From: Chiloscyllium plagiosum
Taxonomy: Eukaryota
NCBI RefSeq assembly: GCF_004010195.1
Contig: NC_057753.1
Coordinates: forward strand, 11,580,462 to 11,626,379
Length of the DNA: 45,918 bases
Direction of reading: 5' to 3'
Both the position numbers and the translations under genes were made by a program. Numbering within the stretch: position 1 is the stretch's first letter; every line of letters starts with the position of its first letter. This document shows, piece by piece, positions 1 to 33,102 of this stretch. The notes below the pieces were generated by a model. That model was not told the origin of the DNA and searched no databases. It saw only the letters and a program-made list of their open reading frames with translations.

Positions 1-420
1 GAACACTTTAACCCCAGGGCATCAATGTGGACTTCAACAGTTTCCTCATTTTCCCTTCCCCCACCTCACCCTAGTTCTAAACTTCCAGCTCAGCACTGTC
101 CCCATGACTTGTCCTACCTGCCTATCTCCTTTTCCACCTATCCACTCCACCCTCTCCTCCCTGACCTATCACCTTCATCCCCTCCCCCACTCACCTATTG
201 TACTCTATGCTATTCTCTCCCCACCCCCACCCTCCTCTAGCTTATCTCTCGACGCTTCTGGGCTATTCTCTCCCCACCCCCCCCCTCCTCCAGCTTATCT
301 CTCCATGCTCCAGGCTCTCTGCCTTTATTCCTGATGAAGGGCTTTTGCCCGAAACGTCGATTTCGAAGCTCCTTGGATGCTGCCTGAACTGCTGTGCTCT
401 TCCAGCACCACTAATCCAGA
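1..420 (+). mobile_element. Penelope-like element 3' fragment (end of GIY-YIG ORF plus family A terminal repeat)
   Basis: Start translates as TL*PQGINVDFNSF, like the PLE endonuclease C-terminus. It is followed by a pyrimidine-rich UTR and the terminal repeat seen again at 24044, 25783, 26772, 28449 and 39725. Confidence 0.75.
327..362 (+). ncRNA. Minimal hammerhead ribozyme motif (family A)
   Basis: CTGATGA (331-337), A, stem II GGGC-TTTT-GCCC, GAAAC, GTC (356-358). ACGT palindrome serves as stem III; stem I is weak. Confidence 0.7.
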
Positions 421-648
421 AGATGAACAGACGATCAAGGTATTTTTCAATGTATAATTTCAGTTACATCACACTGTAAAATTTTGCAATAAATTCTGTG
501 CCTTAGAATTGTGTCCTCCACTATCACCTGATGGAGGAGTGTCGCTCCGAAAGCTAGTGTGCTTCCAATCAAACCTGATGGACTATAACCTGGTGTTATG
601 TGATTTTTAACTTTGTACACCCCAGTCCAACACCAGCATCTCCAAATC
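421..648 (+). mobile_element. PLE terminal repeat family B with mutated hammerhead core
   Basis: cac-CTGATGG-A-GGAGT-gtc-GCTCC-GAAAGCTA-gtg at 525-559; reverse complement of the copy at 11474-11720. Confidence 0.65.
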
Positions 649-1342
649 ATCTGTGAGCACAACACTCTCTGTTCCCATTCTGGGATTAAACTGTTCATTT
701 GCAGGAACTGAAGGGAATGAAGGGAGTGAATCCAGGGAAGGGGCTGACTCAGGAAAGGTTGGTCTAGGTCTGGATCAAAGATATTGACATTCCCTGATCA
801 AAATGAATACATGCAGAAACGTGTGCTTCAACACAAAACAACTTTATTCACTTAATTTACTTTAGTTACATGCAAAGTAATGAGTGACTCTATTATCTTA
901 AAAGACTTTTCATACAGTCAACAAGTCTCACTGCCTTGGCTTCATATCGAGGTCTTCTGGGTGATGGCTAACACTTGGAAATCTATTTCCCTTCCCACGA
1001 TCTGGTCTCTCGAACCCCAGTCCAATGGTGAATGTCTCTCAAGCTGGGAAATACTATTCTGACGCTGATATTAAGTGCTGTACTGCAGTCTCTTGAGTAC
1101 CTTTCCCGTTCATTCCTTTGTGCACAAACAGGTGGGTGTGTCTCTGTGCCTTTGCACAACAGCCTGTTCCCAAGACCAGCCAAGGTCACTGCAGTTACCT
1201 TCCAGCCAGAACAGCCTGGATTTGCCCGAAGCCTTTTTTTCATTGCAATGCACAATTAACAATCTGGGTCGGAGGTATTTTGCCCCCTCAGTTGACACAT
1301 TGATACAAGGTTCGATCATATGTAATCCACGGAGCGCTAGCT

Positions 1343-2420
1343 AATGGGAGAGAAAATCGGCTTGACAGTAGGAGACAAAGGGTGGTGGTAGAGGATTGGT
1401 ATTCAGACTGGAGGCCTGTGACCAGTGGTGTGCTGCAAGGTTCAGTTCTGGATCTACTGTTATTCATCATTTACATAAACGCTTTGGAAGAGACTGCAGC
1501 AGGAATGGTTAACAGGTTTGCAGATGACACCAAAATTGCTGACATATTCCAAAGATCTGCAGGTTAGGTGAATTGGCCATGCTAAATTGCCCGTAGTACT
1601 AGGTGCATTAGTCAGGGATAAATATAGGGGAATGGGACTGGGTGGGTTGCTCATCAGAGGGTCGGTGTAGCCTTGTTGGGCCGAAGGGTCTGTTTCCACA
1701 CTGTAGGAAATCTAATCTAATCTAATCTAGTTTAAGGTAAAGAGGGCAATCTGAGAGTACAACAGGATCTTGATCAGCTGGGCCTGAGGAATGGCAGATG
1801 GAGTTTAATTAAAAGAAATGTAAGGTGTTGCATTTTGCTCAGACACACCAACACAGGATTTACACAGGTGGAGGGTGTTGTTAAACAGAGAGACTAGGGT
1901 TGCAGGTACAAAGTTCCTTGACAGTGGTGTTGCAGGTAGACAGGGTGGTGAAGAAGGCGTTTGGTACACTTCCTCTCATTGTTCAGAGAATCGGGACAGA
2001 ATGTTACGGCTGCACAACACATTGGTATGGCCACAGCGTTCAGTGAAGATTAACAAGGATGCTCCTGTGGCAGGAGGATTTGAGTTGTAAGGCTGGACAG
2101 ACTGAGTCATTCTACCCTGGAGAACCAAAGTCTGAGGGGTGACCTTGTAGAGGTTTCTAAAATCATGGCAGGGCAAAGGTAAGGTGAATTGCCAAGTTTC
2201 ATTCCCTCGGTTATGGGAGTCCAAAACTAGAGGCCGTAGATTTAAGGAGAAGGGGAAAGATTTAAAAGGGACCTGAGGGGCAGAGGATGGTGTGAATGGA
2301 ACGTGTTGGCAAAGGGATTGGTGAAGGAGGGTACAATTATAATACTTAAAACACATTTGGATATGTATGTGGATTGGAAAGTGTAAGAGGGATATGGGCC
2401 AAATGCTGGGAAATTGGACT
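1343..2420 (+). mobile_element. Decayed CR1-type LINE (RT to 3' end)
   Basis: [26 protein letters not shown]...RFADDTKI; interrupted by a SINE. Confidence 0.85.
1549..1728 (+). mobile_element. 5'-truncated HE1-like V-SINE
   Basis: SINE body plus GGGCCGAAGGGTCTGTTTCCACACTGT and (AATCT)n tail. Confidence 0.8.
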
Positions 2421-2985
2421 ACATCACTCTCCTCACCGTCTTTACTCATCTACTCAGCATCGGAAGGCTATTTCATCTTGTGGGGCAATTTAGAATGAGC
2501 GATCTTCAGGATAAGGGGTAGTAATTTCAAACAGGGATGTGGAGAAATTACTACCCACAAAGGGTCAGTAATCTGTGAAATTCATTCTCCCAGAGTGCTG
2601 TGGATGCCAGGACATGGAGTAAACTTAAGGAGGAGATAGACAGATGTTCAATCAGTTTAGGGTTGAAGGGGTACGGAGAGTAGGCAGGAAAGGGGAGTTG
2701 AAACCGATATGCGATCAGCCTCGATGGTATTAAATGGTGGAGCAGGCTCAATGGGCTGAATGGTGCTCCTCGATGTCATGGTCTAACTGGGTTGACCTTA
2801 GATCTACCTGCAGTGGTAGGCAACCTCTGTTTCCAAACCAGGATAAAATAAATATCGTCCATCAGCTTCTGTGGATCATTTCAAGAGGAAGTGTGCTATC
2901 CCAGTTTGAGACAGCACCAGCCCCACTGGAATAAAACAAAATACACTGACCCTCCCACTTCACCCATTGTCCGAACGAACACTGC

Positions 2986-4056
2986 TCAGCCCTGGATGTG
3001 ATTCTCAGCAGCAAGAACAGCAGAATCCAACTGCAGTCTTAACTGATGAACTCTCTGGTGACTCCGCAGCTTGTATGACTGAATAAATCCCCTCCCACAC
3101 ACAGAGCAGATGAATGGCTTCTCCCCGGTGTGAATTCGCTGATGTTTCAGCAGATTTGATGAATCCCTGAACGCTTTTCCGCAAACGGTGCAGGGGAATG
3201 GTCGCTCCCCGGTGTGGATGTGCTGGTGAGTCAACAGTCGGGTGGATCGAGTGAATCCCTTCCCACACTCAGAGCAGGTGAACTGCCTCTCCCCGGTGTG
3301 AAGTTGCTGGTGTACCCGAAGGCTACCAGAGTGAGCAAATTTCTTCCCGCACTGAGAGCAGGTGAATGGGCACTCCCTGGTATGGACCCGCTCATGTGAC
3401 AGCAGACTGGATAAGCGACTGAATCCCTTCTCACACCTGAAGCAGGTGAATGGCTTCTCCCTGGTGTGAACCCGCTTGTGTGCCATCAATGCAGAAGACT
3501 GAATGAATCCCTGCCCGCACTCCGAGCAAATGAACGGCCTCTCCCCGGTGTGAACTCGCCAGTGTCTCTTCAGGTCGGAGGAATGAGTGAATCCCTTCCC
3601 ACAGTCTGTGCAGGTGAACGGCCTCTCCCCGGTGTGGAAACGTCGGTGACTCTCCAGCCCAGATGGAAACCTGAACCGTTTCCCACAGTCCCCACACTGC
3701 CATGGCTTCTCCACGGTGCTGTTGTCCTTGTGTCCCTCCAGGTTGGATGATGAACTGGAGCCTGAAGTGCCCACACACACAGAACCCCCTGATGGTGTCT
3801 CCTGGAGGAATGTTATTGCAGCAACAACTTCCGCATTCAGACAATAGGGGTGCTCCGATTGGCTGGAGGTCCCGTGCGCTTCCGGTCCTCCAGAGCTGTC
3901 AATTGGATAGTCCGCATGCCTACCTGTCAAGAGCCAGCCAATAGGAGCCGCGGCTGTTCCGGACAAAGGGCCTCGCGCTGCCCCCGTGCTGAGGGAGCTG
4001 GAGGAGGGGAGGGCACTTTGCAACAAATCCCTTCCCTTCATTTTCCTCCAAGGCAT
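2986..4056 (-). CDS. C2H2 zinc-finger protein, 8 tandem fingers (ZNF1); start uncertain
   Basis: Eight CxxC-12-HxxxH fingers with TGERP-type linkers and no stops. First ATG is at 4056; the family's usual Met is GTG (STVEKPW). Confidence 0.8.
   Translation of the reverse strand: MPWRKMKGRDLLQSALPSSSSLSTGAARGPLSGTAAAPIGWLLTGRHADYPIDSSGGPEAHGTSSQSEHPYCLNAEVVAAITFLQETPSGGSVCVGTSGSSSSSNLEGHKDNSTVEKPWQCGDCGKRFRFPSGLESHRRFHTGERPFTCTDCGKGFTHSSDLKRHWRVHTGERPFICSECGQGFIQSSALMAHKRVHTREKPFTCFRCEKGFSRLSSLLSHERVHTRECPFTCSQCGKKFAHSGSLRVHQQLHTGERQFTCSECGKGFTRSTRLLTHQHIHTGERPFPCTVCGKAFRDSSNLLKHQRIHTGEKPFICSVCGRGFIQSYKLRSHQRVHQLRLQLDSAVLAAENHIQG
3822..3945 (-). promoter_or_regulatory. Putative ZNF promoter module (CCAAT / ETS / CCAAT)
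   Basis: ATTGG 3858, CTTCCGG 3879, ATTGG 3902, CCAAT 3938; homologous to 24721-24850. Confidence 0.6.
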
Positions 4057-4195
4057 GTGTTCACACAAAGCCCAGGGTTTCACTGTAACCTCACACTCAC
4101 TGAAACTTCCTCATCTGGCCCACCATAGAGATGTACAACACTGAAACAGACCCTTCAGATCAACTGGTCCATTCTGACCAGATATCCTCAATCTA

Positions 4196-4425
4196 GATTT
4201 GGAGGAGCCAGTGTTGGACTGGGGTGAACAAAGTTAAAAATCACACAACACCAGGTTATAGTCCATATCTGTGAGCACAACACTCTCTGTTCCCGTTCTG
4301 GGGTTAAACTGTTTACTTGCATAACACCAGGTTACAGTCCAAAGCTCGTACTTCCAAGTAAACCTGTTGGACGATAACCTGGAGTTGTGTGGTTTTTAAC
4401 TTTGTAGCACCAGCACCTCGATATA
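4196..4425. mobile_element. Two PLE family B terminal-repeat fragments around a ZNF intron-like piece
   Basis: GTGTTGGACTGGGGTGAACAAAGTTAAAAATCACACAACACCAGGTTATAGTCC, then an inverted fragment at 4323-4420. Confidence 0.6.
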
Positions 4426-4507
4426 ATGTTCATTTGCGGGAACTGGAGGGAAATGGAGTGAATCTAATAAAGGATAGTCTAAAGATCTTTTGTTACAGGA
4501 AGGTTTT

Positions 4508-4696
4508 AGATTAGATTACTTACAGTGTGGAAACAGGCCCTTNNNNNNNNNNNNNNNNNNNNNNNNNNNNNNNNNNNNNNNNNNACACGGGGAGAATGTG
4601 CAAACTCCACACAGTCAGTCACCTGAGGTGTGAATTGAACCCGGGTCTCAGGCGCTGTGAGGCAGCAGTGCTAACCACTGTGCCACCATGTCACCC
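4508..4696 (-). mobile_element. HE1-like V-SINE (contains N gap)
   Basis: tRNA-like head with A/B boxes and (AATCT)n tail on the minus strand. Confidence 0.8.
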
Positions 4697-7324: not shown

Positions 7325-7361
7325 CTGGGACAGTAGCGATCACGGTCGGATCTGATGCTTG

Positions 7362-8159
7362 TCATGGCTTGTGGATTCGCTGGTGCCTCCGCAGGTTGGA
7401 GGACTGGGTGAAACCCTTCCCGCACCGGGAGCAGGTGAACGGCCTCTCCCCGGTGTGGACCCTCCGGTGCCTCAGCAGCTTGGATGAGTTGCCGAAGGCC
7501 TTCCCGCACAGTGAGCAGGAGAAGGGCCTCTCCCCGGTGTGGACCCGCCGGTGGGTCAGCAGGTTGGACAGCTGGTTGAAGGCCTTGCCGCACTCGGGGC
7601 AGGGGAATGGCCTCTCCCCGGTGTGGACCCGCTGGTGGGTCAGCAGGTTGGAGGAGTTGGCGAAGCCCTTGCTGCACTCGGGGCAGGCGAAAGGCCTCTC
7701 CCCGGTGTGCAGCCGCCGGTGGGCGCGCAGGACGGAGGGGTTGGCAAAGGCCTTGCCGCACTCGGGGCACGGGAAAGGCTTCAGCCCGGCGTGGGCCCGC
7801 TGGTGGGTGCGCAGGACAAAGGGGTTGGCAAAGGCCTTGCCGCACTGAGGGCAGGCGAACGGCCTCTCCCCGGTGTGGAGCCGCCGGTGGGCACGCAGGA
7901 CGGAGGAGTCAGTGAAGCCCATTCCGCACTCGGGGCAGGGGAATGGCTTCTGCCCAGTGTGGATCTGTTGGTGCCTGTGCAGGTGGGAGGACTGGGTGAA
8001 GCCCTTTCCGCAGTGCGGGCAGGCGAACGGCCTCTCCCCCGTGTGGACCCGCCGGTGAATCTCCAGCGCTGACGGCGACAGGAATCCCTTGCCACACTCC
8101 CCACACTTCCACCGTTTCTCCCCGGGGCGGGGGTCCCCGCGCCTCGCCAGGTTGGATCT
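7362..8159 (-). CDS. C2H2 zinc-finger open frame, 9 fingers (ZNF2); first in-frame ATG at 7922
   Basis: Stop-to-stop frame reads ...PGEKRWKCGECGKGF... through nine fingers to RIHKP*; in-frame TAG at 8160-8162. Confidence 0.75.
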   Translation of the reverse strand, partial: RSNLARRGDPRPGEKRWKCGECGKGFLSPSALEIHRRVHTGERPFACPHCGKGFTQSSHLHRHQQIHTGQKPFPCPECGMGFTDSSVLRAHRRLHTGERPFACPQCGKAFANPFVLRTHQRAHAGLKPFPCPECGKAFANPSVLRAHRRLHTGERPFACPECSKGFANSSNLLTHQRVHTGERPFPCPECGKAFNQLSNLLTHRRVHTGERPFSCSLCGKAFGNSSKLLRHRRVHTGERPFTCSRCGKGFTQSSNLRRHQRIHKP

Positions 8160-8417: not shown

Positions 8418-8450
8418 CTGCAGTGAGGAGATTGCAAACGTCAGCACAGG
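8418..8450 (-). other. Putative splice acceptor of the ZNF2 exon
   Basis: Minus strand CTGACGTTTGCAATCTCCTCACTGCAG|GGGCTG; parallels the ZNF3 acceptor at 38665. Confidence 0.55.
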
Positions 8451-10778: not shown

Positions 10779-10960
10779 ATTCTTTATCCATTAAGTTTGA
10801 AATTTTATTTTGTGTTGGATACTCATAGAATCCCTACAGCGTGGAAGCAGGCTGTTCAGACCGTATCGACACTCCCACCCAGACCCACCCCATCACCCAT
10901 TCCCTGTAACCCTGCATTTCCCCCACGGCTAACTCACTTTGCCTGCACATTCTTGGACAC

Positions 10961-11465
10961 TATAGGCATCAGATGCTCCCAACATGGTCTTCTCTACATT
11001 GGGAGGACCGAACGTAAACTTGGGGAACGGTTCGCCGAGCTTATCAGCCGGGGACAACCAGACCTCCCATTTTAATTTCCCATCCCACTCTCTTTCCGAC
11101 ATGACCATCCTTGGCTTCCTCTACTGCCACAAACCACATCACAAATTGGGGGAACAACACCTCATCTTCTGCCTGGGGCAGCCTACAGCCTGGAGGACTT
11201 AGCGTTGAGTTCTCCAATTTCAAATAGTCTCCCTTCCCAGCCCCAGCCCCCTCCCTTCCACTGCTCCCTGCCACCAACCGGATTCATTTCCCCCGTTGAC
11301 CAACCAGGTCATAGCCTCCTCCTGTCTTCACCTATCCCCACCCTGCCCTGCCCTGCCCCGCCCCTGTCACCCCATTTTTTCTGCAGCTCTCTCTACACCC
11401 ACCCCCAGTGCTGAAGAAGGTTACACCCAAAACGTTGACTTCTCCACCTCCTGATGCTGCCTGGT
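10961..11465 (+). mobile_element. PLE GIY-YIG endonuclease pseudogene fragment plus decayed terminal repeat
   Basis: IRCSQHGLLYIGRTERKLGERFAE...HFNFPSHSLSDMTILG...EQHLIF, frameshifted; hammerhead relic CTGAAGA at 11411. Confidence 0.85.
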
Positions 11466-11473
11466 TTGATGTG

Positions 11474-11748
11474 ATTTGGAGATGCCGGTGTTGGACTGGG
11501 GTGTACAAAGTTAAAAATCTCACAACACCGGGTTATAGTCCAACAGGTTTGATTGGAAGCACTAGCTTTCGGAGCATCACTCCTTCATCAGGTGGTTGTG
11601 GAGAATAAAACTGTAAGACACAGAATTTATAGCAAAAGTTTACAGTGTGGATATAACTGGAATTATATATTGAAAAAGACCTGGATTGTTTGTTAAGTCT
11701 CTCATCTTTTAGAATGTTAAAAATCACACAACACCAGGTTATAGTCCT
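11474..11748 (-). mobile_element. PLE terminal repeat family B
   Basis: Reverse complement of 421-648. Confidence 0.65.
11560..11594 (-). ncRNA. Minimal hammerhead ribozyme motif (family B, intact core)
   Basis: cac-CTGATGA-A-GGAGT-gat-GCTCC-GAAAG-CTA-gtg; stem I cac/gtg, AGCT palindrome as stem III. Confidence 0.75.
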
Positions 11749-14011: not shown

Positions 14012-16921
14012 AGTCATAGAGGTGTACAGCATGGAAACAGACCCTTTGGTCCAACCCGTCCATGCCGACCAGATATCCCAACCCAATCTAGTCCCACCTG
14101 CCAGCGCCCGGCCCATATCCCTCCAAACCCTTCCTATTCATATACCCATCCAAATGCCTTTTAGATTTACAATTGTACCAGCCTCCACCACTTCCTCTGG
14201 CCGCTCATTCCATACACGTACCACCCTTTGTGTGAAAAAGTTGCCCTTAAGTCTCTATTATATCTTTCCCCTCTCACCCTCTAGTTCTGGACTCCTCCAT
14301 CCCAGGGAAAAGACCTTATCTATTTATCTTATCCATGCCCCTTATGATTTTATAAACCTCTATAAGGTCTCCCCTCAGCCTCCGACACCCCATGGAAAAC
14401 AGCCCCAGCCTGTTCATTCTCTCCTTGTAGCTCAAACCCTCCAACCCTGGCAACATCCTTGTCAATCTTTTCTGAACCCTTTCACATTTCACAACATCTT
14501 TCCGATAGGAAGGTGACCAGAATTGCAGGCAATATTCCAACAGTGGCTTAACCAATGTCCTGTACAGGTGCAATATATCCTCCCAACTCCTGTACTCAAT
14601 ACTCTGGCTGATAAAGGAAAATATACCAAACGCCTCCTTCATTATCCTATCTAGCTGCGACTGCACTTTCAAAGAGCTATGAACCTGCACTCCAAGGTCT
14701 CTATGTTCAGCAACACTCCCTAGGACCTTACCATTAAGTGTATAAGTCCTGCTAAGATTTGCTTTCCCAAAATGCAGCACCTCGCATTTATCTGAATTAA
14801 ACTCCATCTGCCGCTTCTCAACCCATTAGCCCATCTGGTCCAGATCCTGTTGTAATCTGAGGTAACCCTCTTTGTTGTCCACTACACCCTCCAATCTTGG
14901 TGTCATCTGCAAACTTACTAACTATACCTCTTTTGCTCACATTCAAATCATTTATATAAATGACGAAAAGTACTGGACCCAGCACCGATCCTTGTGGCAC
15001 TCCACTGGTCACAGGCCTCCAGTCTGGAAAACAACCCTCCAACACCACCCTCTGTCTTCTACCTTTGAGCCAGTTCTGTATCCAAATGGCTAGTTCTCCC
15101 TGTATTCTGTGAGATCTAACCTTGCAAACCAGTCTCCCATGGGGAACCTTGCCAAATGCCTTACTGAAGTTCATATAGATCACATCTACCACTCTTCCCA
15201 TATCAATTCTGTTTGTTACTTCAAGTTTGTGAGACATGATTTCCCACATGTTGACTATCTCTACCCAAATACATGTATATCCTGTCCCTCAGGATTCCCT
15301 CCAACCACTTGCCCACCACTTAGGTCAGGCTCACTGGTCTATAGTTCCCTGGTTTGTCTTTACCACCCTTCTTAAACAGTGGCACCACGTTTGCTAACCC
15401 CCAATCTTCCAGCACCTCACCTCTGACTATCAATCATACAAGTATCTCAGCAAGAGGCCCAGCAATCACTTCTCTAGCTTCCCACAGAGTTCTGGGGTAC
15501 ACCTGATCAGGTTCTGGGGATTTACCAACTTTTATGCGTTTCAAGACATCCAGCACTTCCTCCTCTGTAATATGGACATTTTTCAAGATGTCACCATTTA
15601 TTTCCCTACAGTCTATATCTTCCATGTCCTTTTCCACAGTAAATACTGATCCAAAATACTCCTTTAATATCTCTCCCATTTTCTGTGGCTCCGCACAAAG
15701 GCCGCCTTGCTGATCTTTAAGGGGCCCTATTCTCTCCCTAGTTACCCTTTTGTCCTTAATGTATTTGTAAAAACCCTTTGGATTCTCCTTAATTCTATTT
15801 GCCAAAGCTATCTCATGTCCCCTTTTGTCCCTCCTGATTTCCCTGTTAAGTATACTCCTACTACCTTNNNNNNNNNNNNNNNNNNNNNNNNNNNNNNNNN
15901 NNNNNNNNNGAAAATTCTTGCCTAATACCGTCAAAATTGGCCTTTCTCCAAATTAGAACTTCAACTTTTAGATCTGGTCTATCCTTTTCCATCACTATAT
16001 TAAAGCTAATAGAATTATGGCCATTGGTCTCCAAATTGCTCCCCCACTGACAACTCAGTCACCTGCCCTGCCTTATTTCCCAAGAGTAGGTCAAGTTTTG
16101 CCCCTTTTCTAGTGGGTACATCCACATACTGAATCAGAAACTTTTCTTATACACACTTAAGAAATTCCTCTCCATCTAAACCCTTAACACTATGGCAGTC
16201 CCAGTCTATGTTTGGAAAGTTAAAATCCCCTACCATAACCACCCTATTTTTCTTACAGATAGCTGAGATCTCCTTAAAAATTTGTTTCTCAATTTCCCTC
16301 TGACTATTAAGGGGTCTATAATACAATTCCAATAAGGTTATCATCCCTTTCTTATTTCTCAGTTCCACCCAAATAACTTCCCTGGATGTATTTCCGGGAA
16401 TACCCTCCCTCCGCACAGCTGTAATACTATCCCTTCTCAAACAGCTGTAATGCTATCCCGTATCAAAAAGGCCACTCCCCTCCTCTCTTGCCTCCCTTTC
16501 TGTCCTTCCTGTAGCATTTGTATCCTGGAACATTAAGCTGCCAGTCCTGCCCATCCCTGAGCCATGTTTCCGTAATTACTATGATATCCCAGTCCCATAT
16601 TCCTAACCATACTCTGAGTTCATCTGCCTTCCCTGTTAGGCCCCTTGCATTGAAATAAATGCAGTTTAATTTATTAGTCCTACCTTGTCCCTGCCTGCCC
16701 TGACTGTTTGATTCACTTCTGTCCTCAACTGTACTAGTCTCAGATTGACCTCTTTCCTCACTGTCTCCCTGGGTCCCACCTCTCCCACCTTACTAGTTTA
16801 AATCCTCCCAAGCAGCTCCAGCAAATCTCCCTGCCAGTATATTAGTCCCCTTCCAATTTTGGTGCAACTCGTCCATCTTGTACAGGTCACTTCTACCCCA
16901 AAAGAGATTCCAATGATCCAA
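14012..16921 (-). mobile_element. Long CR1/HER1-like LINE: ORF1 esterase end, APE endonuclease, RT, 3' tail; internally deleted and disrupted
   Basis: WNLFWGRSDLYKMDELH...GTNILAGRF; YYRP...[38 protein letters not shown]. Confidence 0.9.
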
Positions 16922-17028: not shown

Positions 17029-19770
17029 GGGGAGGCGATGGCCCAGTGGTATTATTGCTCGACTGTTAATCCAGACACCCAGAATACTGTTCTGGGGACC
17101 TGGATTCAAATCCCGCCTTGGCACGTGGTGGAATTTGAGTTCAATAAAAAAGCGGGAATTAAGAGTCGACTGCTGACCATGAGACCATTGTCAATTGTCG
17201 GAAAAACCCATCTGGTTCCCTCATGCCCTACAGGGATGGAAATCGGCCAACCTGACCTGGTCTGACCTACATGTGACTCCAGAGCCACAGCAATGTGGTT
17301 GACTCTGAACTGCCCTCTGACATGGCCTGGCAAACCACTCAGATTGTATCAATCACTAGAAAGTCACAACGAAGAAATGAAACCAGACGGACCCCCACCC
17401 GGCTTCGAGCTCAGACCTGGGAAAGACAACGGCAAAAGCTCAAACAGCCCTGTCGACCGTGCAAAGTCCTCCTTACCAACATCTGGGGGCGAGTGCCAAA
17501 ATTGGGAGAGCTGTCTCACAGACTAAAGCAATAGCCTGAGATAGTCATCCCTACGGAATCATACCTTACAGATAACACCTCAGACCCCACCACTACCACC
17601 ACCATCTCTGGGTATGTCCTGTCCCACCGGCACGGTGGTATACAATCAGGAGGGAGTTGCCCTGGAAGTCCTTGACATCGACTCCAGTCCCCGTGAAGTC
17701 TCGTGGCTTTGTGTTAAACGTGGGCAAGGTAACGTCTCACTGGTTACCATGTACCATCCTCCTTCACCTGTTGAGCAACACATGGAGGAAGCACTGAGGT
17801 GGCAAGGGTGCAAAATGTACCTTGGGCGGCGGATTCCAATGCCCGCCACGGCAGCAGCATTACTGATCGAGCTGGTCGGGTCCTAAAGGATTTAAGGCTA
17901 TCACGCAGCACCTGCTCAGTGACGCCCAGATTGAGTTTCGCCAGGGACACCCAGCTCCTGATCTCATTAGAGCCTTGGTTCAAACATGGACAAAAGAGCT
18001 GAATTCCAGGGGGGAGGTGAGAGTGACAGCCCTCGACATCAAGGCTGCATTTGACCATGTATGGCATCAAGGAGCCCTGGCAAAACTGGAGTCAGTGGGT
18101 ATCGTGGGGAAACACTCCGCTGGTTAGAGTCATACCTGGGTCTGTGGCAGGCGGTGAAGGAACCAACAAGAGGGGGGGAAAGAAACATTTGACCTCATCC
18201 TTACTAATCTGCCGGCTGCAGTAGCATCTGCCCATGACAGCATTGGTAAAAGAGCCCACCACACTTGTCCTTGTGGGGACGAAGTCCCATCTTCACATTA
18301 AGAATAGCGACCGTCGTGTTGTGTGGCACTGTCACGGTGCTAAATGGGACAGACTTCGAACTGATCTAGCAGCTCAAGACTGGGCATCCGTGAGGCCATC
18401 AACAGCAGAACTGTACTCCCGCCCAATCTGCAACCTCGTGGCCTGGCATAGCCCCCACTCAACCATTACCTGCAAGCCAGGGGATCAACCCTGGTTCAGT
18501 GGAGAGTGTAGGAGGACATGCCAGGATCAGCATCAGGCGCACCTGAAAACGGGGTGCCAACCTGGGGTGAAGCTACCAGACAGGACTACTTGCCTGCCAA
18601 TTGGCATAAACTGCAAGTGATAGACAGAGCTAAGCAATCCCACAACCGACAGATCAGATCTAAACTCTGCAGTCCTTCCATGTCCAGTTGTGAATGGTGG
18701 TGGAGAACTAAACAACTCTCTGGAGGAGGAGGTTCCACAGATATCCCCACCCTCAATGATGGAGGAGCCCAGCACATCAGTGCAAAAGATCAGGCGGGCC
18801 AAAGGGCCTGTACTGCGCTGTATTCTTCTATGTTCTATGTTCTCTGGAGGAGGAGGTTCCACAGATATCCCCACCCTCAATGATGGAGGAGCCCAGCACA
18901 TCAGTGCAAAAGATCAGGCTGATGCATTCGCAACAATCTTCAGTCAGAAGTGCCGAGTTGACGATCCACCTTGGGCTCCTCCAGTGGTCCCCAGCATCAC
19001 AGACACCAGTCTCCAGCAAATTCGATTCACTCCACGTGATATCAAGCAACGGCTGGAGGCACTGGATACTGCAAAGGCACTGGGCCCTGATAACAGTCTG
19101 ACAATAGTACTGACGATGTGCGCTCCAGAACTTGCCGCTCCTCTAGCCAAGGTACAACACTGCCATCTACCCGACAATGTGAAAATTGCCCAAGTATGTC
19201 CTGTACGCAAAAAGCAGGACAAATCCAACCCAGCCAATTACCGCCCAATCTGTCTGCTCTCCACCATCAGTAAAGTGATGGAAGGAGTCACCAACAGTGC
19301 TATCAAGCAGCACCTACTCAGCAACAACTTGCTCAGTGACACCCAGTTTAGGTTTTTCCAGGGTCATTCAGCTCCTGACCTCACTACAGCCTTGGTTCAA
19401 ATGTGGACAAAAGAGCTGAATTCCAGGGGGGAGGTGAGAGTGACAGCCCTTGACATCAAGGCTGCATTTGACCGTGTATGGCATCAAGGAGCCCTGGCAA
19501 AACTGGAATCGGTGGGTATCGTGGGGAAAACACTCCGCTGGTTAGAGTCATACCTGGCGGAAAGGAAGATGGTTTGTGATTGTGGGGGTCAGTCGTCTCA
19601 ACTCTCGGACATTTCAGCAGGAGTCCCTCAGGGTAGTGTCCTAGACCCAACAATCTTCAGCTGCTCCATCAATGACCTTCCAAGGTCAGAAGTGGGGATG
19701 TTCGCCAATGATTGCACAGTGTTCAGACCTCAGATACTGAAGCAGTCCATCCAGGCTTGGGCAGACAAAT
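17029..19770 (+). mobile_element. Non-LTR retrotransposon pseudogene (APE + RT) with tRNA-like 5' head
   Basis: A box 17039-17049, B box 17102-17113; LLTNIWG...ELSHRL...TESYL (APE); [21 protein letters not shown] (RT); frameshifts and stops. Confidence 0.85.
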
Positions 19771-20066
19771 GGGGAGTCCAGAACTAGAGGTTTAGGGTGA
19801 GAGGGGAAAAGATTTAAAAAGGAACCTAAGGGGCAACCTTTTCACACAGAGGGTGGTGCGTGTATGGAATGTGCTGCCAGAGGACGTGGTGGAGGCTGGT
19901 ACAATGACAGCATTTAAAAGGCATCTGGATGGAGACATGAATAGGAAGGGCTTAGAGGGATATGGGCCAAGGGCTAAAATAGGACTAGATTAGGTTAGGA
20001 TGTCTGGTTGGCATGGACAAGTTGGACCGAAGGGTCTGTTTCCGTGCTGTACATCTCTAAGACTCT
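19771..20066 (+). mobile_element. HER1-like CR1 3' end
   Basis: RGNLFTQRVVRVWNVLPEDVVEAG and tail. Confidence 0.85.
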
Positions 20067-23745: not shown

Positions 23746-24043
23746 ATTGATTTGCTAAATTGACTCCTCCAGTGCAGTAAGGACTGAAAATATATAGCAT
23801 AGCTACAGTACTATACTAGAAATAATAAATGTACATCAGAGAACCACAAATAATAAATACCATTATGACAAATCTTGACATATCTTTGTCCTATGTTAAA
23901 TTTAAGTTCCCATAAATGCAGGATATTTCCTGGAGATCCCACTCCTTCATTGTGAACATTGTAGATAGGCACATGAGGGAAATAAATTTTCAAGACTTCA
24001 GGGATATAGAGGGGTTCGGGACTAACGAGTTTATTGCACGGAG

Positions 24044-24180
24044 AAGGGCTTATTCCTGAAGAAGGGCTTATGCCCGAAACGTCGATTCTCCTGCTCCTTG
24101 GATGCTGCCTGACCTGCTGCGCTTTTCCAGCAACACATTTTTCAGCTCTGATCTCCAGCATCTGCAGTCCTCACTTTCTC
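24044..24180 (+). mobile_element. Solo PLE family A terminal repeat with hammerhead (24056-24083) and 22-bp TSD
   Basis: CTAACGAGTTTATT(G/A)CACGGAG at 24022-24043 and 24181-24202; CTGAAGA-A-GGGC-TTAT-GCCC-GAAACGTC. Confidence 0.8.
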
Positions 24181-24624
24181 CTAACGAGTTTATTACACGG
24201 AGAGTCAGCATGCAGTCCAGTTAGCAAATGGACAACTTCTGTCCTACAATGACTCTATTGTTGGAAATACATAAGCTAGCTATAGCACAATATTACATGG
24301 CTAGCAATAATAACAATGCACTTTTCTCAGGGAAATATAGATAATGTAAGTCTTATGTACCACAGAACAGCACAAGATTCTCTCTTATATGCATTTGTTA
24401 TCCCCCTAAATGTCGGCCATTTCCTGGAAAGGCCAACCCTTTAATCGAGAATCTTTGGAGAGAGACCATCCTTTGAGCCAGGTAGATAAATCTGTCCAGC
24501 GTGGAGGAGAGAGACCTGGATCAACCTTTCCAGTGTCTGTCCCTCCCCGAAGATTCACTTCCCCTCCCTTCTGTTTCTGCAAGTCCACACTTTAACCCCA
24601 GAATGAAAAAAAGAGAGTGCCGTG

Positions 24625-24985: not shown

Positions 24986-25782
24986 CCGAACTGAGCAGCA
25001 ATACATGTGGGCACTCAGCGCATTTGGTTGGGACAGCCCTTTATCGACCTGAGCATTGCCTTCAGACCTTAGAACCATTTTGAAATTAAAGCAGGAATGT
25101 TCGAGAGTCTCAGATGTTCTGGCATTGTTCGTGGAGGAAGAGACAATTAACATTTCGCGTCCAACGTGAACCTACTTTAGTCAAGGACTTAGACGTTTGG
25201 GTGACACATTTGGGAAGGACCGCTGTGAAACCTGAACCCATCAGCCAACATCTTCAGGGGCGCAGAATTAAGGGAAAAGCAGGCGGTGGGTAAATTAGGT
25301 TGCAATCAATAGGGAGAACGTAGGAGGCAGGGAATTGTAGTTTGAGGAGGTGGAGAACGAGTTGAACTCTGGATTTCTGGCCTTAACCTTCAGGGGATTA
25401 GAAGGGGAGGATTTGCCGACAGGAAACGCAAACTGAACACTCTAAGAAGAACTGAGAGAGTGTAAGATAGGAGGGGCTCAAGAGTAAGCAGTTATCCAAA
25501 ATAGGGAGTTGAGAATTCATCAATGATTTTAAGATCCTGTATTAAGTTTATGACGAAGCTACAGTTTACTTTTTAGTTAAATAGGCGGAGAAATCACCTG
25601 ACCCATAATAGGTGAGAGCAGCTCACTGTCCAGAATCACTATTACCCTGATGGGGGGGGGGGGGGCTTGGGTGGTTTAATGGTAATGGCCTACCTATGAC
25701 CCATGGGACTCACATTTCAAGTTCCATTTGTTCCAGAAGAGTGTGATGATATCTCTGAACAGATTGGTTAGGAACATATCAA

Positions 25783-25910
25783 GGAGAAAGTGAGGACTGC
25801 AGATGCTGGAGATCAGAGTCGAGAGTGTGGTGCCGGAAAAGCGCAGCAGGTCAGGCAGCATCCGAGGAGCAGGAAGATTGACGTTTCGGGCATAAGCCCC
25901 TCATCAGGAA
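25783..25910 (-). mobile_element. PLE family A terminal repeat with intact hammerhead core (25880-25907)
   Basis: Minus strand CTGATGA-G-GGGC-TTAT-GCCC-GAAACGTC. Confidence 0.75.
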
Positions 25911-26771
25911 CGAGCCTCACTCACGGGAAACATTAAGAAAACAACTCATACTAACATAAAAACTGGAAAATTATCAGGCCCTGACGGACTTTGATATGTT
26001 TGTCGTGTTTCAATGCCAGCATTCTGTGGTCTGAGTAATTCTCTGCGTGTTAAATGATATGCCGCAAAGACTGGACTTTTATTGAGACTGCTGTCTTGAA
26101 GTTTATTAACTACTGTTACAAGACCTGCTATTTTCACAAAGTCTGTCAAATTTTCACATTTATTGATTTTGCAGCTACACGACGTGACTGTAACAGAAGA
26201 CTTGACTGAATCCGTAACAGGGTCTGAAGATTTTACATCATTCTATGACAGTGGGGAATAAAGATCACATTGACAGGAAATGGAAGGAATTGTGAGAAGT
26301 CAACCCATTCGGAAATCGTACCCTTTATATATATATATATATATAAAAAATGGGTGTTGCTTCTTCCTTTCCCGCTCAAGAACCACGGGATCACTGCAGA
26401 GCCACGCTGTCTTGCCCCTGTTGTCAGACGTTCCCACTGGAATAAGACTTGGTATCCTGTAACAAGACACACACACACAGACGTGTCTGCATCCAAGGTG
26501 GCAAGTTTGGAATCTTCAAAGTACTGAAGTACATGGATGCACTTGCTGGATGATAAACTATCTGCTGGTACCCGCGGTGTGTCCGCGGAGGGAAGATCCT
26601 GAAGAGGAGACGCCTTTGATCACAAAATTTAGAACACGTGGGGATTAAAAAGTGGAGAAACCGAGACTCCCTTTGTAATTCATCTTTGTCACTCGGAGTA
26701 GGCATCTGCTGTACGTTTGTTTTTGAGTCAGATCAGGTCGAAAACCAAACAGACTAATCAAAGAACTGCTC

Positions 26772-27005
26772 TATTCCTGATGAAGGGCTTTCACCCGAAA
26801 CGTCGATTTTCCTGCCCCTCGGGAGCTGCCTGACCTGCTGTGCTTTTCCAGCACCACTCTGATCCAGACTCTTGCAGTCATTGTTTTTACCTAGTTGATT
26901 TTAATCCTACTGCGAATCCTCTTGCAAGGATGCCTGCCTTGAAGAGGTTTCCCTCCTGCTGCCTGACCTGCTGTGCTTTTCCAGCACCGCTCTGATCTAG
27001 ACTCT
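26772..27005 (+). mobile_element. PLE family A partial tandem terminal repeats; hammerhead 26777-26804
   Basis: CTGATGAAGGGCTTTCACCCGAAACGTC; GCTGCCTGACCTGCTGTGCTTTTCCAGCACC occurs twice. Confidence 0.7.
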
Positions 27006-27940
27006 AATCAAAGAAACTCTAATCAAACCCGGCTCCCTGACACCGTGAGGCAGCGGTGCAGACCACTCTAGTTTGAGGTTGAGCACAAGACAGTGTTTCC
27101 TCTCCACTGCCGCGGGCTGACCAGAAGTACGTGTCATCCTCATGTTCGGCTTCTCCAAAGATTGCCCTAGACGGCGAGACAGGCTGGTGGACCCGTGTCC
27201 ACACACCGTTGGATTGCACCCCGGCTTAATGGTTGGGCCGGACGTGGTCCTTCGGAGACATTACCCGACGGAAAGGCGATCCAAACCGCGCCGGCTCCTT
27301 GTCGATTCTGGGGAAGAGCAGACCACGTTGCAGGGTGGTGTGGAATCTAGTTCCAGGAGCAGCCCACCCTGAAGGTGAATGACACGTTAACGAGAAGCAT
27401 CAACACCCGGAAGGGCACCGTCCTTCAAACCTGCCTGGGCCAAGGTCAGTCAACTCAACATGAACAAATTTTGGGATCTTTGATGTTCCAATCGACGTGT
27501 TTGCCACCTCTTGGATGATAATAATATGTAGATCGCTGCCTACTAGTATGTGTACAAGGTTTGGGGGGGGGGGGGGGGGGTGTACTTCTGTGATTTACTG
27601 GTAGTGTTCCTTCCTCTGGGCCAGTGGGCCCAGGTTCAAGTCTCATCGACTCCAGAGGTGTGTTATGACATCTCTGCACAGGTTGTCACCTGATTCAGGA
27701 AAAGTCCTGGTACTCCAGTAATGCTTAGTCCAGCTGTTTCAGCAAGGTGAAAGTTTTCAGGCCAAGGGCCCATACTGAGATTGGTGACGGTGGCTCAGTG
27801 GTCTGCACTGCTGCCTCACGGTGCCAGGGACCCGGGTTTGATTCCACCCTCTCAGGTGACTGTCTATCTGGAATTTGCACATTCTCCCTGTACCTGCGTG
27901 GGTTTTCTCCGAGTGACCCGGTTTCCTCCCACAGTCCAAA

Positions 27941-28437
27941 GGTGTGCAGATTAGGGTGGATTGGCCGTGCTAAATTACCCATAGTGCCCAGGGATGTGCA
28001 GATTAGGGTGGATCGGCCGTGCTAAATTACCCATAGTGCCCAGGGATGTGCAGGTTAGGGTGTTTTGGCCATGCTAAATTACCCATAGTGCCCGGGGATG
28101 TGCAGGTTAGGGTGGATTGGCCATGCTAAATTACCCATAGTGCCCAGGGATGTGCAGGTTAGGGTGGATTGGCCGTGCTAAATTACCCATAGTGCCCAGG
28201 GATGTGTAGGTTAGGGTGGATTGGCCGTGCTAAATTACCCATAGTGCACAGGGATGTGCAGGTTAGGGTGGATTGGCCATGCTAAATTACCCATAGTGCC
28301 CACGGATGTGCAGGTTAGGGTGGACTGGCCATGCTAAATTACCCATAGTGCCCAGGGATGTGCAAGTTAGGGTGGATTGGCCATGCTAAATTACCCATAG
28401 TGCCCAGGGATGTACAGGATAGGGTGGATTGGCCATG
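27941..28437 (+). repeat. 52-bp tandem repeat, 9 full units plus a partial
   Basis: GGGATGTGCAGGTTAGGGTGGATTGGCCATGCTAAATTACCCATAGTGCCCA with exact 52-bp period. Confidence 0.95.
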
Positions 28438-28448
28438 GGAAATGTGAG

Positions 28449-28648
28449 CTGAAAATGTGTTGCTGGAAAATAGCAGCAGGTCAGGCAGCATCCAGGGAAC
28501 AGGAGAATCGACGTTTCGGGAATTCCTGAAGAAGGACTTATGCCCGAAACGTCGATTCTCCTGTTCCCTGGATGCTGCCTGACCTGCTGCTATTTTCCAG
28601 CAACACATTTTCAGCTCTGATCTCCAGCATCTGCGGTCCTCACTTTCT
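28449..28648. mobile_element. Fold-back PLE family A cassette with hammerhead (28526-28553)
   Basis: 75-bp inverted arms 28446-28520 / 28543-28617; TSD CCATGG(G/A)AAATGTGAG. Confidence 0.8.
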
Positions 28649-29003
28649 CCATGGAAAATGTGAGGCAGCAGGAATAGGACAGGGTCTGGGTGGGAAACTC
28701 TTTGGAGGGACTGCATGGCCTCAATAGGCCAAATGGCCTCTCTCTGCACTGTAGGGATTCTATAGGTAGTACCAAGGCCTGTCTTAAGCAGCCTGGTTAC
28801 CTATTGTGTGGAGATTACACCACATTCTGCCAGTTTCCTTACTACTTGACATGTAATATGCAAGAAAGTATGAAATCTGCAGATGCACCACTGTCAGGTT
28901 TGGAATACAGTGCACGTTGGCCATTCCATTTGGGTACATGACATGGATGGAGGAAAAGGATTCAGCTTTCCTGACGGTACGCGAGTGTGGTGTATTTTTT
29001 TTT

Positions 29004-29300
29004 TAGATTACATTACAGTGCGGAAACAGGCCCTTCGGCCCAGCAAGTCCACACCGACCCGCCGAAGGGCAACCCACCCATACCCCTACATTTACCCCTT
29101 ACCTAACACTACGGGCAATTTAGTATGACCAATTCACCTGACCTGCACATCTTTGGACTGTGGGAGGAAACCGGAGCACCCGGAGGAAACCCACGCAGAC
29201 ACGGGGAGAATGTGCAAACTCCACACAGTCAGTCGCCTGAGGCGGGAGTTGAACCCGGGTCTCAGGCGCTGTGAGGCAGCAGTGCTAACCACTGTGCCAC
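29004..29300 (-). mobile_element. Full-length HE1-like V-SINE
   Basis: Head, V-domain and (TAATG/C) tail. Confidence 0.85.
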
Positions 29301-29363
29301 CCCAAACAATTAAAACAATTCCGCCGTCAATTCTGCTTTCAAAACCTCTCAGGGTCAGGAGAG

Positions 29364-29452
29364 ATTTGCATTTACCTGGCACCATGCACAACCTCAGGGC
29401 ACCCCAAACTGCTTTTTAGCCACGAAATTACTTCTTGGAAGCGTGGTCAGTC
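29364..29452 (-). mobile_element. Possible DeuSINE (AmnSINE1/SacSINE1-like) 3' remnant
   Basis: TTGCATTTAC...CCTCAGGGCACCCCAAA...AGCCACGAAATTACTT...GAAGCGTGGTCA resembles my recollection of the consensus tail; not aligned. Confidence 0.4.
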
Positions 29453-29562
29453 AGGATTTTTAACCTATTCACTCGCGGGGTGATTTGGCATCACCGGCTT
29501 GGCCCAGTATTTGCTGAACGTCGGGGGCGGGGGCAGGGGAGTCAAGCTATGAGGAGAGATTA

Positions 29563-29762
29563 CAGATTGTTCTGCAATAACCCGACAGCTACGTTCCTCT
29601 GCGACCACGCAGATTAGAAAATATTGCTGTGGAAGATCGCTATAGAAAAATCACTTTGCCCATTCAGTAAAAGTTGGTGCGATCCAAACATGGTCCACAT
29701 TTCATCAACCAGGCGATCGCCAATTCGTGTTGGCGAAACGCACGTTATACCGGAGTGACCTG
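29563..29762. mobile_element. Tc1/mariner (Tigger-like) MITE candidate
   Basis: TA|CAGATTGTTCTGCAATAAC ... GTTATACCGGAGTGACCTG|TA; imperfect TIRs with TA flanks. Confidence 0.5.
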
Positions 29763-29841
29763 TACACAAATTACACGATGTTCGGCACAACATCGTGGGC
29801 CGAAGGGCCTGTTCTGTGCTGTATTGTTCTATGTTCTAAAT

Positions 29842-30730
29842 TAGGCCTGTTTTCTCTTGGAATTTACGAGGGTAAGGAGTGATCTGATCAAAGTCTTCAA
29901 GGTTTCTGAATATCGCATGCAATTCTGGTCACCTTCCTATCGGAAGGGTGTCGTGAAACTTGAAAAGGTCCATAAAAGATTTACAAGGACATTGTCAGGA
30001 TTGGAGGATTTGAATGCGGAAAGGCTGAATAGTCTTGGGACTGTTTTCCCTGGAGGAGTGACCTTACAGAGGTTTATAAAATCAGGAGGGGCATGGATAC
30101 GATAAATAGACAAGGTCCTTTCCCTGGGGTGGGGGAAGTCCAGAACTAGAGGGGCATAGGTTTAGGGTGAGAGGGGAAAGACATAAAAGAGACCTAAGGA
30201 GCAACTTTTTCACACAGAGGGTGGTGCGTGTGTGGAATGAGCTGCCAGAGGAAGTGGTGGAGACTGGTACAATTGCAACATTTAAAAGGCATCTGGGTGG
30301 GGACATGAATAGGAAGGGTTTCGAGGGATATGGGCCAAGTGCTGGCAGGTGGGACTAGATTGGGTTGGGATATCTGGTCGGCATGGACAGGTTGGACCAA
30401 AGGGTCTGGTTCCATTTCTATGACTCTGTAACTCTACGTCAACAAGAAAAGACAGGCTAGATAAAGATCAACTGTTTATGCGGTTGAAGATTGTAGAATT
30501 AGGGGCATAGTCTGAGAATTCAGGAGAGTATAGCATTTCTATACTCAAAGGGTGGTGGAGGTGTGGAACTCTCTTCCACAAATGACACTGGATACTGGAT
30601 CAGTTGCTAGTTTTAAATCTGAGAGAGAGATAGATTTTTGCTAAGTAAAGGTGTAAAGGCCACAGATCAGCCACGATCTCAGTGAGTGACAGAACAGGTT
30701 CGAGGGGCTGAATGGCCTACTCCTGTTCCT
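29842..30730 (+). mobile_element. Older CR1 3' end with nested HER1-like 3' end (about 29905-30432)
   Basis: QFWSPSYRKGVVKLE; NFFTQRVVRVWNELPEEVVE. Confidence 0.8.
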
Positions 30731-31262
30731 GTTGCCCCGTCCCTAGTTGTGGTGGTGACGAACTGCCTGGGTGTGTAAAGTTGTGCGCTTGGTCTCGTTG
30801 ACATGCTTGCAAGCCACCACAGTGTGGTTTCTTGGGTCAAACCTCACAGCTCGTATGATGGTCCCTCTGTATTAGCTCTTGTCACAAATATATGCGAAAG
30901 CAGATGTATTGAGGTTTCGTCACACAAGCTGTTTATACAGTTGTAACACCTCAGACTTGCACATAGTCTGGGTTCCACGCTTACTGATAGTACGGGGAAA
31001 GTACATGTCTGTAACATGACAAGCAGCTGCACTGACCCCCCCATTGCAATGATAGTACTGGACGTGAGGTAAAAGCCTTTGTAGTGGAATGTGATGAGAT
31101 CTATCCCGGATCTACGCGATAATCCAACATATTCATCTGAGTGTCTGCGCAGGGTTCCTGCTCAAACAGTGGCTGCATGAGTTTTAACTTTCCAAACGTG
31201 TCTGGGCTTGGCAACGGACCCATCCGATTGCAGAACAGTGAACGTGACTCCTCTGTTCAAAG

Positions 31263-31771
31263 AAGTTAAAAATCACACAACACCAGGTTATGGTCCAACA
31301 AGTTTATTTGGAGGCATTGACTTTCGGAACGCTGCTCCTTCATCGGGTGGTTGTGGAGAAGGATCATAAGGCACAGAATTACAGCAACAGGGTTGCAGTG
31401 TCATGGACTGTCTTTAACGTCACACCTTCAATGCACTATCTGAGCTGAGGTGGCATCTCTTGTTAAAAGCTATCTTGAGAATGTAACTTTTAAAAAGTTC
31501 TGGGATTTACATATGAAGGAACCAAAACTAACATGATCATTCTAAAAGGTGAAAGACGTGAGCTAAATTTGTTTAATATTACAGTCCATGACACTGCAAC
31601 CCTGTTCCTGTAATTCTGTGTCTTATGATCCTTCTCCACAGCTACCCGATGAAGGAGCAGCGTTCCGACAGCTAGTGCTTCCGAATAAACCTGTCGCGAC
31701 TATAACCTGGTGTTGGATGATTTTTTTAACTTTGTCCACCCCAGTCCAACACTGGCACCTACACATCATGA
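31263..31771. mobile_element. Fold-back PLE family B cassette
   Basis: Inverted arms about 31263-31411 / 31581-31732; both cores read CCGATGA; TSD CTGTTCAA(A/G)GAAGT. Confidence 0.75.
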
Positions 31772-32048
31772 CTGTTCAAGGAAGTGCAGAGACAGGAAGC
31801 TAGCAATCTACAGACTGGCTATCTTCACATCTATTGTAGTGAAAATGCATGTGCTCATTTATCAAGGGAGATCTATCTGGATATTTAGAAAACTTTAATG
31901 CAAACAGGCAGAGTCAGCATGGTTTTGTGAAAGGGAATTATGTTCAACCAACTTACTGGGGATTTTTTAAACAATAAAGTAAGCAGTGTGGTTCAAGGGG
32001 CACCCAAAACTGTACTGTACTGTGATTCCAAAAGCTGTTTGACATAAC

Positions 32049-32361
32049 GGGTGGCACAGCGGTTAGCACTGCTGCCTCACAGCAGCAGAGACCCGGGTTC
32101 AATTCCTGCCTCAGACGACTGATTGTGTGGAGTTTGCATAATTCTCCCCGTGTCTGCATGGGTTTCCTCCGGGTGCTCCGGTTTCCTTCCACAGTCCAAA
32201 GATGTGCAGGTTAGGTGAATTGGCCATGCTTAAATTACCCGTAGTGTTAAGTGAAGGGGTAAATGTAGGGGAATGGGTATGGGTGGGTTGCGCTTTGGCG
32301 GGTCGATGTGGACTTGTTGGGCCGAAGGGCCTGTTTCCTCACTGTAAGTAATGTAATGTAA
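32049..32361 (+). mobile_element. Full-length HE1-like V-SINE
   Basis: GGTGGCACAGCGGTTAGC head; (GTAAT)n tail. Confidence 0.85.
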
Positions 32362-32811
32362 TAATGACCTTGGATGTGCACTATGCAAAAAAAACATAGC
32401 TCAAACTCATATAACATAGAAACCGATCCTTCGGTCCAACCAGTCCATGCCAACCATAATCCTAAACTAAACTAGTCCCACCTGCCTGCTCCTGGCCCAT
32501 ATCCCTCCAAATCTTTCCTGTTCACGCATTTATCCAAGTATCTCTTAAATGTTGTAACTGTACCCACATCCACTACTTCCTCTGGAAGTTCATTCCACAT
32601 GTGAACCAGTCTGTATGTAAAACAAAACTGCCTTTTTTAAAAGCTTTCTCCTCTCCCCTTGTCTCGAAATCCCCCACCCTAAGGAAAAGACACCTGCCGT
32701 TCACATTATCTATAATCCTCACTATTTTATAAACCTTAGCGAGTTCTGACATTTGTAGCTCAGGTTGAGGTTCTGGACATAGGTTTGCTCGCTGAGCTGG
32801 GAGGTTCATTT

Positions 32812-32851
32812 CCAGACGTTTCGTCACCCTACCAGGTAACATCCTCAGTGG
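32812..32851 (-). ncRNA. Minimal hammerhead ribozyme motif (family C)
   Basis: cca-CTGAGGA-T-GTTACC-tggtag-GGTGAC-GAAAC-GTC-tgg. Confidence 0.78.
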
Positions 32852-33062
32852 GCCTCAGGCAAAGCACTGTTCATGATTCCTGCTTTCTATTTATATATTT
32901 GGGTTGGTGATGCCATTTCCTGTGGTGATATCATTTTATGTTCTTCTCAGGGGTTGGTAGATGGGGTCTAACTCGATGCGTTAGGAAATGACATCACCAA
33001 CCCAAAGAAACCCAAATATATAAATAGAAAGCAGGAATCATGTACAGTGCTTTGCCTGAGGC

Positions 33063-33102
33063 CCACTGAGGATGTTACCTGGTAGGGTGATGAAACGTCT
33101 GG
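33063..33102 (+). ncRNA. Minimal hammerhead ribozyme motif (family C, second arm)
   Basis: cca-CTGAGGA-T-GTTACC-tggtag-GGTGAT-GAAAC-GTC-tgg. Confidence 0.72.

Follow-up and report, generated by a model that had tools for sequence, protein, structure and literature searches.

What are the short hammerhead-like motifs scattered along a stretch of the genome of the shark Chiloscyllium plagiosum, and in which RNA would they act? The stretch (NCBI RefSeq assembly GCF_004010195.1, contig NC_057753.1, positions 11,580,462 to 11,626,379 of the forward strand; 45,918 nucleotides (nt), hereafter the window) contains eight listed cores of three families, A, B and C. These motifs are most probably minimal type I hammerhead ribozymes (min-HHRs) located in the pseudo-long terminal repeats (pLTRs) of three families of endonuclease (EN)-bearing Penelope-like elements (PLEs), with a parent RNA that likely self-cleaves slowly, as dimers or with the help of a protein, and with window copies that are likely inert insertion relics. 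An earlier note on this DNA had called the families self-cleaving modules; this description would fit the RNA of the parent elements and not the window copies, because most genomic copies are truncated, solitary and decaying.

At the level of the individual cores, a scan of the window for CTGANGA gives 36 sites. A strict descriptor (CTGANGA, stem II of at least 4 base pairs (bp), GAAA, Watson-Crick pairing at 15.2-16.2, UH, and stem I of at least 2 bp) is passed by five motifs, with cores at 331, 24056 and 33066 on the plus strand and at 32848 and 11591 on the minus strand, and by none in each of 200 dinucleotide shuffles. The three other listed cores are family A copies with one stem mismatch each, namely C.A in stem II (26777), A.C in stem II (28526) and C.A at the first pair of stem I (25907). 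All eight cores catalogued in the earlier note were located at the positions given there, with CTGANGA, the extra nucleotide, stem II and GAAA, and the conserved positions C3-A9, G12-A15.1, U16.1 and H17 are present in 8/8. Its description of stem III as nothing but a 4-nt palindrome holds for every core, helix III having shrunk to ACGT in A and C and to AGCT in B. The same is true of the single extra nucleotide after A9, which stands before 10.1 in all eight cores and in all 39 descriptor matches of a random genome sample described below. The descriptor matches in the window and in that sample have the G10.1-C11.1 pair, with C or U at 11.1, and the predicted cut is preceded by GUC or CUA in all eight listed cores. 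The further claim that the stems differ between families and yet keep pairing is qualified by the three mismatched family A copies and by stem I of family A, which is weak (2 bp followed by U.U, reaching 4 bp in subfamily A2 only) and accompanies a helix II of 4 bp. Further decayed copies are present at 528, 11411, 31263-31768 and 39732-39917.

The motifs are by no means confined to this locus. An exact 31-mer of family A has 28,912 matches in the 3.56-Gb genome of the species itself, and the exact patterns of families B and C have 13,382 and 1,219, giving together at least 43,513 matches, while the reversed control patterns of the three families have none genome-wide. The strict descriptor, run on 972,712 bases drawn from 50 arbitrary places of the genome, found 39 motifs versus 0 in five shuffles, which extrapolates to about 1.4e5 intact motifs per genome. 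Three random stretches of the genome (R101, R151 and R219) contain a probable fourth PLE hammerhead family, a short fold-back repeat built on a CTGAGGA core, with a separate stem II and a separate tail.

The Penelope-like context, which the earlier note had proposed, is borne out by the sequences around the motifs. Fragments encoding a reverse transcriptase (RT) and a GIY-YIG endonuclease lie upstream on the same strand for all three families, with the motif directly 3' of an open reading frame (ORF) that encodes the RT followed by a C-terminal GIY-YIG domain in a single frame. Pfam recognizes GIY-YIG in A (E 4.9e-5) and C (E 0.0024) and RVT_1 in C (E 1.9e-5), B (E 0.0025) and A (E 0.072), and the family B protein was linked to HTH_animal/GIY-YIG/RVT_1 clusters with an Atlas score of 0.97. 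Two near-full-length copies carry two direct motifs, one per pLTR: family B motifs 3,272 nt apart in L283 and family C motifs 2,537 nt apart in L284. For family A the 5' position is seen in L244 and the 3' position in L199, which are different copies. Counting positions from C3 = 0, as is done for all insertions here, the ATG lies at +163 in A and +119 in B, so that the motif stands in the 5' untranslated region (UTR), about 160 and 120 nt before the ATG, and the reading frame of family C starts at an ATG overlapping A9, the extra U and G10.1. The N-terminal part of the family A ORF contains an Ala/Thr/Pro-rich low-complexity segment of variable length (L244:461-1484, and L262).

Where they can be aligned, the proteins of A, B and C share no more than about 28-48% identity. 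All have two cysteines between GIY and YIG in the C-terminal domain, like the Neptune and Penelope/Poseidon EN-bearing PLEs (Craig et al. 2021, PMC8557442), and all share with EN-bearing PLEs the 5' truncation, the partial tandems, the inverted 5' copies and the 30-40 nt tail. In that study a CX2-5CxxC linker between RT and EN tells Neptune from Penelope/Poseidon. Because A and B have such a linker, in the form CX4CxxC, and C lacks it, A and B are probably Neptune-type, with Nematis as another candidate for both, and C is probably Penelope/Poseidon-type, the clade being read from this motif.

The architecture of the motifs is that of the min-HHRs already published for metazoan PLEs (Cervera and De la Pena 2014, PMC4209133), as the earlier note had recognized when it called the class known. 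Those ribozymes are of type I and without a real helix III, with palindromic 15.2-16.2 positions, an extra nucleotide between 9 and 10.1 and a G10.1-C11.1 pair; they occur as several families per genome, mostly in single dispersed copies with some opposite-strand pairs 100-700 bp apart, and in both pLTRs. The present motifs share the type, the palindrome, the extra nucleotide, the multiplicity of families, the dispersal, the opposite-strand pairs and the location in both pLTRs. They differ from the Schistosoma min-HHRs of the same paper in their helices, with 7-8 bp in helix II and 4-5 bp in helix I there against 4 bp and 2 bp in family A. Inverted pLTRs, target-site duplications (TSDs), solo pLTRs and palindromic junctions have been documented in PLEs (PMC3846280), and the class has been reviewed (PMC6155905). 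The closest parallel for family C is PAc, a Poseidon element of Anolis carolinensis with a protein-assisted HHR (Frangieh et al. 2024, PMC11167929), whose cleavage is not needed for insertion in vitro: in both, the ORF starts at stem II and its start codon precedes the cut by about 27 nt, two 3' end positions define a 'tail', and the insertions give no sign of cleaved ends. Unlike PAc, families A and B have the motif in the 5' UTR and proteins with the CX4CxxC linker.

Within families, the copies carry traces of both constraint and decay. The three families belong to three different elements, and for that reason the comparison of stems between families made in the earlier note is no within-family covariation; such covariation is seen at one stem I pair of family C. 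This third stem I pair is GC in 12, UA in 9, CG in 4 and another combination in 3 of 28 distinct rows. The family C covariation score of 0.261 is reached by 0/500 shuffles, and 88.8% of cells pair compared with 26-46% for slid controls. Within-family covariation was found in C and not within A or B. The subfamilies of C, between which the pair changes, reflect active lineages. One of them, the third family C subfamily, is often present as inverted pairs (L167/L168, L145, L101, L155, L213, L215); it has a stem I pair that sets it apart, a stem II mismatch, and a cut site with either GUU or GUC.

Among 108 family A copies variation is found at N7, in loop II, at the unpaired stem I position and at CpG sites. 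The complete core is kept in 43/108 and G12 is lost in 23/108, and non-CpG divergence, with gaps and subfamily variants included, is 3.8% in the core and 5.5% in the tail (p 0.02). On account of this core loss and of the core and tail divergence, the inserted copies decay nearly neutrally. It is here that host domestication has to be considered, that is, that the window copies are ribozymes regulating neighbouring zinc-finger genes, as five intact copies together with three C2H2 zinc-finger ORFs in the window might suggest. Such a role is very improbable: with five intact motifs in 46 kb the window has a density similar in magnitude to that of the genome at large (39 in 973 kb), the loss of G12 and the closeness of core and tail divergence speak against it, and the copies are solitary or inverted, so that no direct-repeat partner lies near.

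The ends of the insertions bear on which RNA was copied. Genomic copies have a fixed 3' end and a 5' end of variable extent, as expected from 5' truncation. In each family the 3' ends gather in two places, at about +80-95 and +121-131 for A and B and at about +66-80 and +99-115 for C. This pattern agrees with PAc, which has two RT start sites inside its RNA and a tail of 30-40 nt. For the 5' ends of family A, 185 of 186 copies were scored and nine with N at the junction were dropped, leaving 176. An inverted arm is present in 55/176 (12-nt exact test), and direct repeats of at least 9 bp flank 12/58 short non-inverted copies, compared with 0.7% of 600 control pairings. The 5' ends lie at -10 to +10 in 103/176 A copies and at -12 to +10 in 30/65 B copies, a pile-up that differs from a uniform spread with binomial p values of 6e-43 and 2e-8, respectively. 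A cleavage footprint, with insertions starting at the predicted cut site (+25 to +31 in A), was rejected, such starts being found in 4/176 A, 1/65 B and 0/29 C copies. A 5' hotspot in family C was rejected as well, since the 17/29 ends at -2 come from subfamilies with different upstream sequence. The ends were taken from BLAST, with an error of a few bases, and the peak could be inflated if the 29-member library lacks some subfamilies; the family A peak is nevertheless argued to be real because target-site duplications abut the peak ends. From 5' ends that lie at the ribozyme 5' edge and not at the cut site, these data therefore suggest that the RNA copied into A and B insertions was uncleaved, in line with PAc. 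By analogy with other PLEs, the RT might begin at either of two internal sites of the RNA, about 80-95 and 107-131 nt past C3, and proceed back across the uncleaved ribozyme, which would account for the presence of the motif in nearly every insertion and for the high genome count.

The simplest cause of the sharp insertion boundary at the ribozyme 5' edge in A and B is transcription start at that place; alternatively, the RT might stop or snap back at the fold. At many A1 junctions a part of stem II is repeated directly before the core (window 24045-24055; L032, L038, L043), which is consistent with snap-back and with template jumping at the motif. It could be argued that the main reason for keeping the motif in A and B, the Neptune-type families, is structural, as the 5' boundary of the element RNA or ribonucleoprotein (transcription start, RT stop or snap-back point), and that insertion does not depend on cleavage. 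The position of the 5' ends near C3 instead of at the cut site, the target-site duplications abutting them, the start at -1 of the family A copy that continues from the motif into the ORF (L244) and the insertion in vitro of PAc ribozyme mutants (PMC11167929) all agree with this proposal. We regard it as a doubtful though serious candidate, since all catalytic nucleotides, unneeded for a purely structural role, are kept in three unrelated elements, family C lacks such a hotspot, an identical pattern would arise from a promoter that fires just upstream, without any role for the fold, and RNA reads considered below show no pile-up of starts. Its stronger form, in which the RT, with uncleaved RNA as its template, halts or snaps back at the 5' edge of the Neptune-type ribozyme, so that the fold sets the insertion 5' end and the element mass-produces TSD-flanked cassettes of ribozyme plus tail of about 130 nt, with on the order of 100,000 intact motifs in the genome, is in our judgement unlikely.

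The same short units, with their common 5' end and TSDs, make up most family A copies and might be taken for a non-autonomous element, similar to a short interspersed element (SINE) or a retrozyme, with its own RNA and mobilised in trans. Non-LTR retrozymes, reported as pLTR-derived (bioRxiv 10.64898/2026.07.22.740005), resemble the present motifs in having a type I HHR related to pLTRs, and tandem retrozymes are reported there in one chondrichthyan; they are, however, tandem arrays of 51-972 bp units, whereas the window copies are single or inverted pLTR ends and the window shows no tandem arrays of the unit. The unit is also co-linear with the 5' end of the full-length element and continues into the ORF in L244, L262 and L267, 31/176 A copies reach more than 60 nt upstream into the pLTR, and the ends lie off the ribozyme cut site, unlike those of a self-cleaved monomer. 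A separate non-autonomous element is accordingly quite improbable.

If the motifs are PLE hammerheads active in the parent RNA, as preferred here, then by analogy with other PLEs the ACGU or AGCU palindrome would join two of them, helix III being formed in this way, and the paired motifs would cut after GUC or CUA. Monomers would be inactive, and cleavage would come slowly from palindrome dimers or with assistance of the element's protein, as described for the systems of PMC4209133 and PMC11167929. Several results weigh against this. The active dimer fold is predicted to be 9-16 kcal/mol less stable than the predicted dimer of minimum free energy for all five intact motifs, a gap that fits low or assisted activity, and stem I of family A is short, as described. 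In a sample of raw RNA reads (about 2% of one run, from a coded organism that may be another species) the repeat appears on both strands, mostly continuing into unlike sequence, and there is no pile-up of read starts or ends, the cut site included, a picture that tells neither for nor against cleavage; the other of two raw sequencing runs gave 0 reads. Most Pfam scores are under the curated cut-offs, 4/7 proteins of the first Pfam scan had no match, and 32 loci yielded no family A copy that has both pLTRs. The covariation of family C consists of two-sided change at only 1/9 pairs, its 'further pair types' measure is reached by 428/500 shuffles, 13 rows have a break at one pair of stem II, and related sequences without structure can beat such shuffles.

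The hammerhead-model search advised in the earlier note had a divided outcome, favourable with the descriptor and negative with Rfam cmscan, which returned no hammerhead family among 12 matches at E<=5. Together with the short stems, this absence could point to a mere chance likeness of repeats to the hammerhead consensus. Such a coincidence is scarcely conceivable and is refuted by the shuffle controls and the family C covariation; there are in addition the empty genome-wide result for the reversed patterns and the occurrence of the motif at the same position in three unrelated PLEs. The best Rfam matches on the window, to the microRNA models mir-3199 and mir-680, were set aside, being really fold-back family A insertions and below the gathering score.

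The copies in the window are listed in Table 1. No flanking direct repeat was found for the copy with its core at 25907. Besides the PLE insertions, the window contains a zinc-finger gene cluster with three C2H2 ORFs and 84-nt periodic repeats at 2986-4110, 7362-8159 and 37483-38379, all on the minus strand. A tandem 52-nt repeat at 27832-28547 and 35333-35684 is a piece of an abundant SINE-like repeat (family D3), which we take to be HE1. Endonuclease and RT remnants of the long interspersed element (LINE) type, presumably CR1/L2, are found on both strands at 14316-16789 (minus), 18624-19787 (plus) and 45162-45758 (plus), with many shorter pieces.

Table 1. Hammerhead motifs and PLE remnants in the window (positions from the first letter of the window)
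Feature	Position	Strand	Details
Family A (subfamily A3) min-HHR, intact	329..360	+	core 331-358; predicted cut after 358; within pLTR remnant 126-421
Family B pLTR remnant, decayed min-HHR	431..649	+	core from 528; A9 changed to G
Decayed Penelope-like GIY-YIG remnant, then A-like decayed core	10938..11440	+	remnant 10938-11184, tblastn E 2e-9 against family A protein; core 11411, G12 changed to A
Family B min-HHR, intact	11560..11594	-	core 11591-11563; predicted cut after 11563 (CUA); copy 11472-11715
Family A1 short insertion, ribozyme 5' edge to +125	24022..24203	+	intact min-HHR 24054-24085; predicted cut after 24083
Direct repeats around family A1 insertion	24022-24044 / 24181-24203	+	23 nt, one mismatch
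Family A short insertion	25780..25914	-	core 25907-25880 intact; first stem I pair mismatched
Family A3 short insertion	26769..26903	+	core 26777-26804; one stem II mismatch
Family A1 fold-back insertion	28433..28664	+	inverted arm ends 28523, direct arm 28522-28650; core 28526-28553, one stem II mismatch; 16-nt direct repeats, one mismatch
Decayed family B head-to-head pair	31263..31768	.	31263-31401 minus, 31468-31768 plus
Family C min-HHR, intact	32812..32851	-	core 32848-32815; predicted cut after 32815; arm 32736-32982
Family C min-HHR, intact	33063..33102	+	core 33066-33099; arm 32983-33140
The two family C arms as one head-to-head insertion	32724-33152	.	13-nt direct repeats 32724-32736 / 33140-33152
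Family A fold-back insertion	39732..39917	.	neither arm with a complete core

The hosts of min-HHRs in the consulted parts of PMC4209133 are teleosts, the coelacanth (about 4,000), Xenopus (about 9,000) and reptiles, and the word 'shark' was not found in its main text nor in two of its supplements. A literature search that did not cover Repbase or Dfam gave no description of these families, of shark PLE hammerheads or of 5' ends clustering at the ribozyme. The class has been known since 2014, so that finding three more families of it changes little in itself; two points are of use. One is the abundance of the motif, which at 43,513 or more by exact patterns and about 1.4e5 by extrapolation is more than ten times the coelacanth and Xenopus counts of the 2014 paper. 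The other concerns function, which for PLE hammerheads the literature consulted still describes as unclear: the insertion ends back, from the side of the genome, the in vitro finding that the RNA used as template is uncleaved, and they add a sharp 5' boundary at the ribozyme edge that can be mapped. If it were true that the fold sets the 5' end of the insertions, the PLE hammerhead would have a role apart from cleavage, one that could be tested on the few hundred thousand junctions in the genome.

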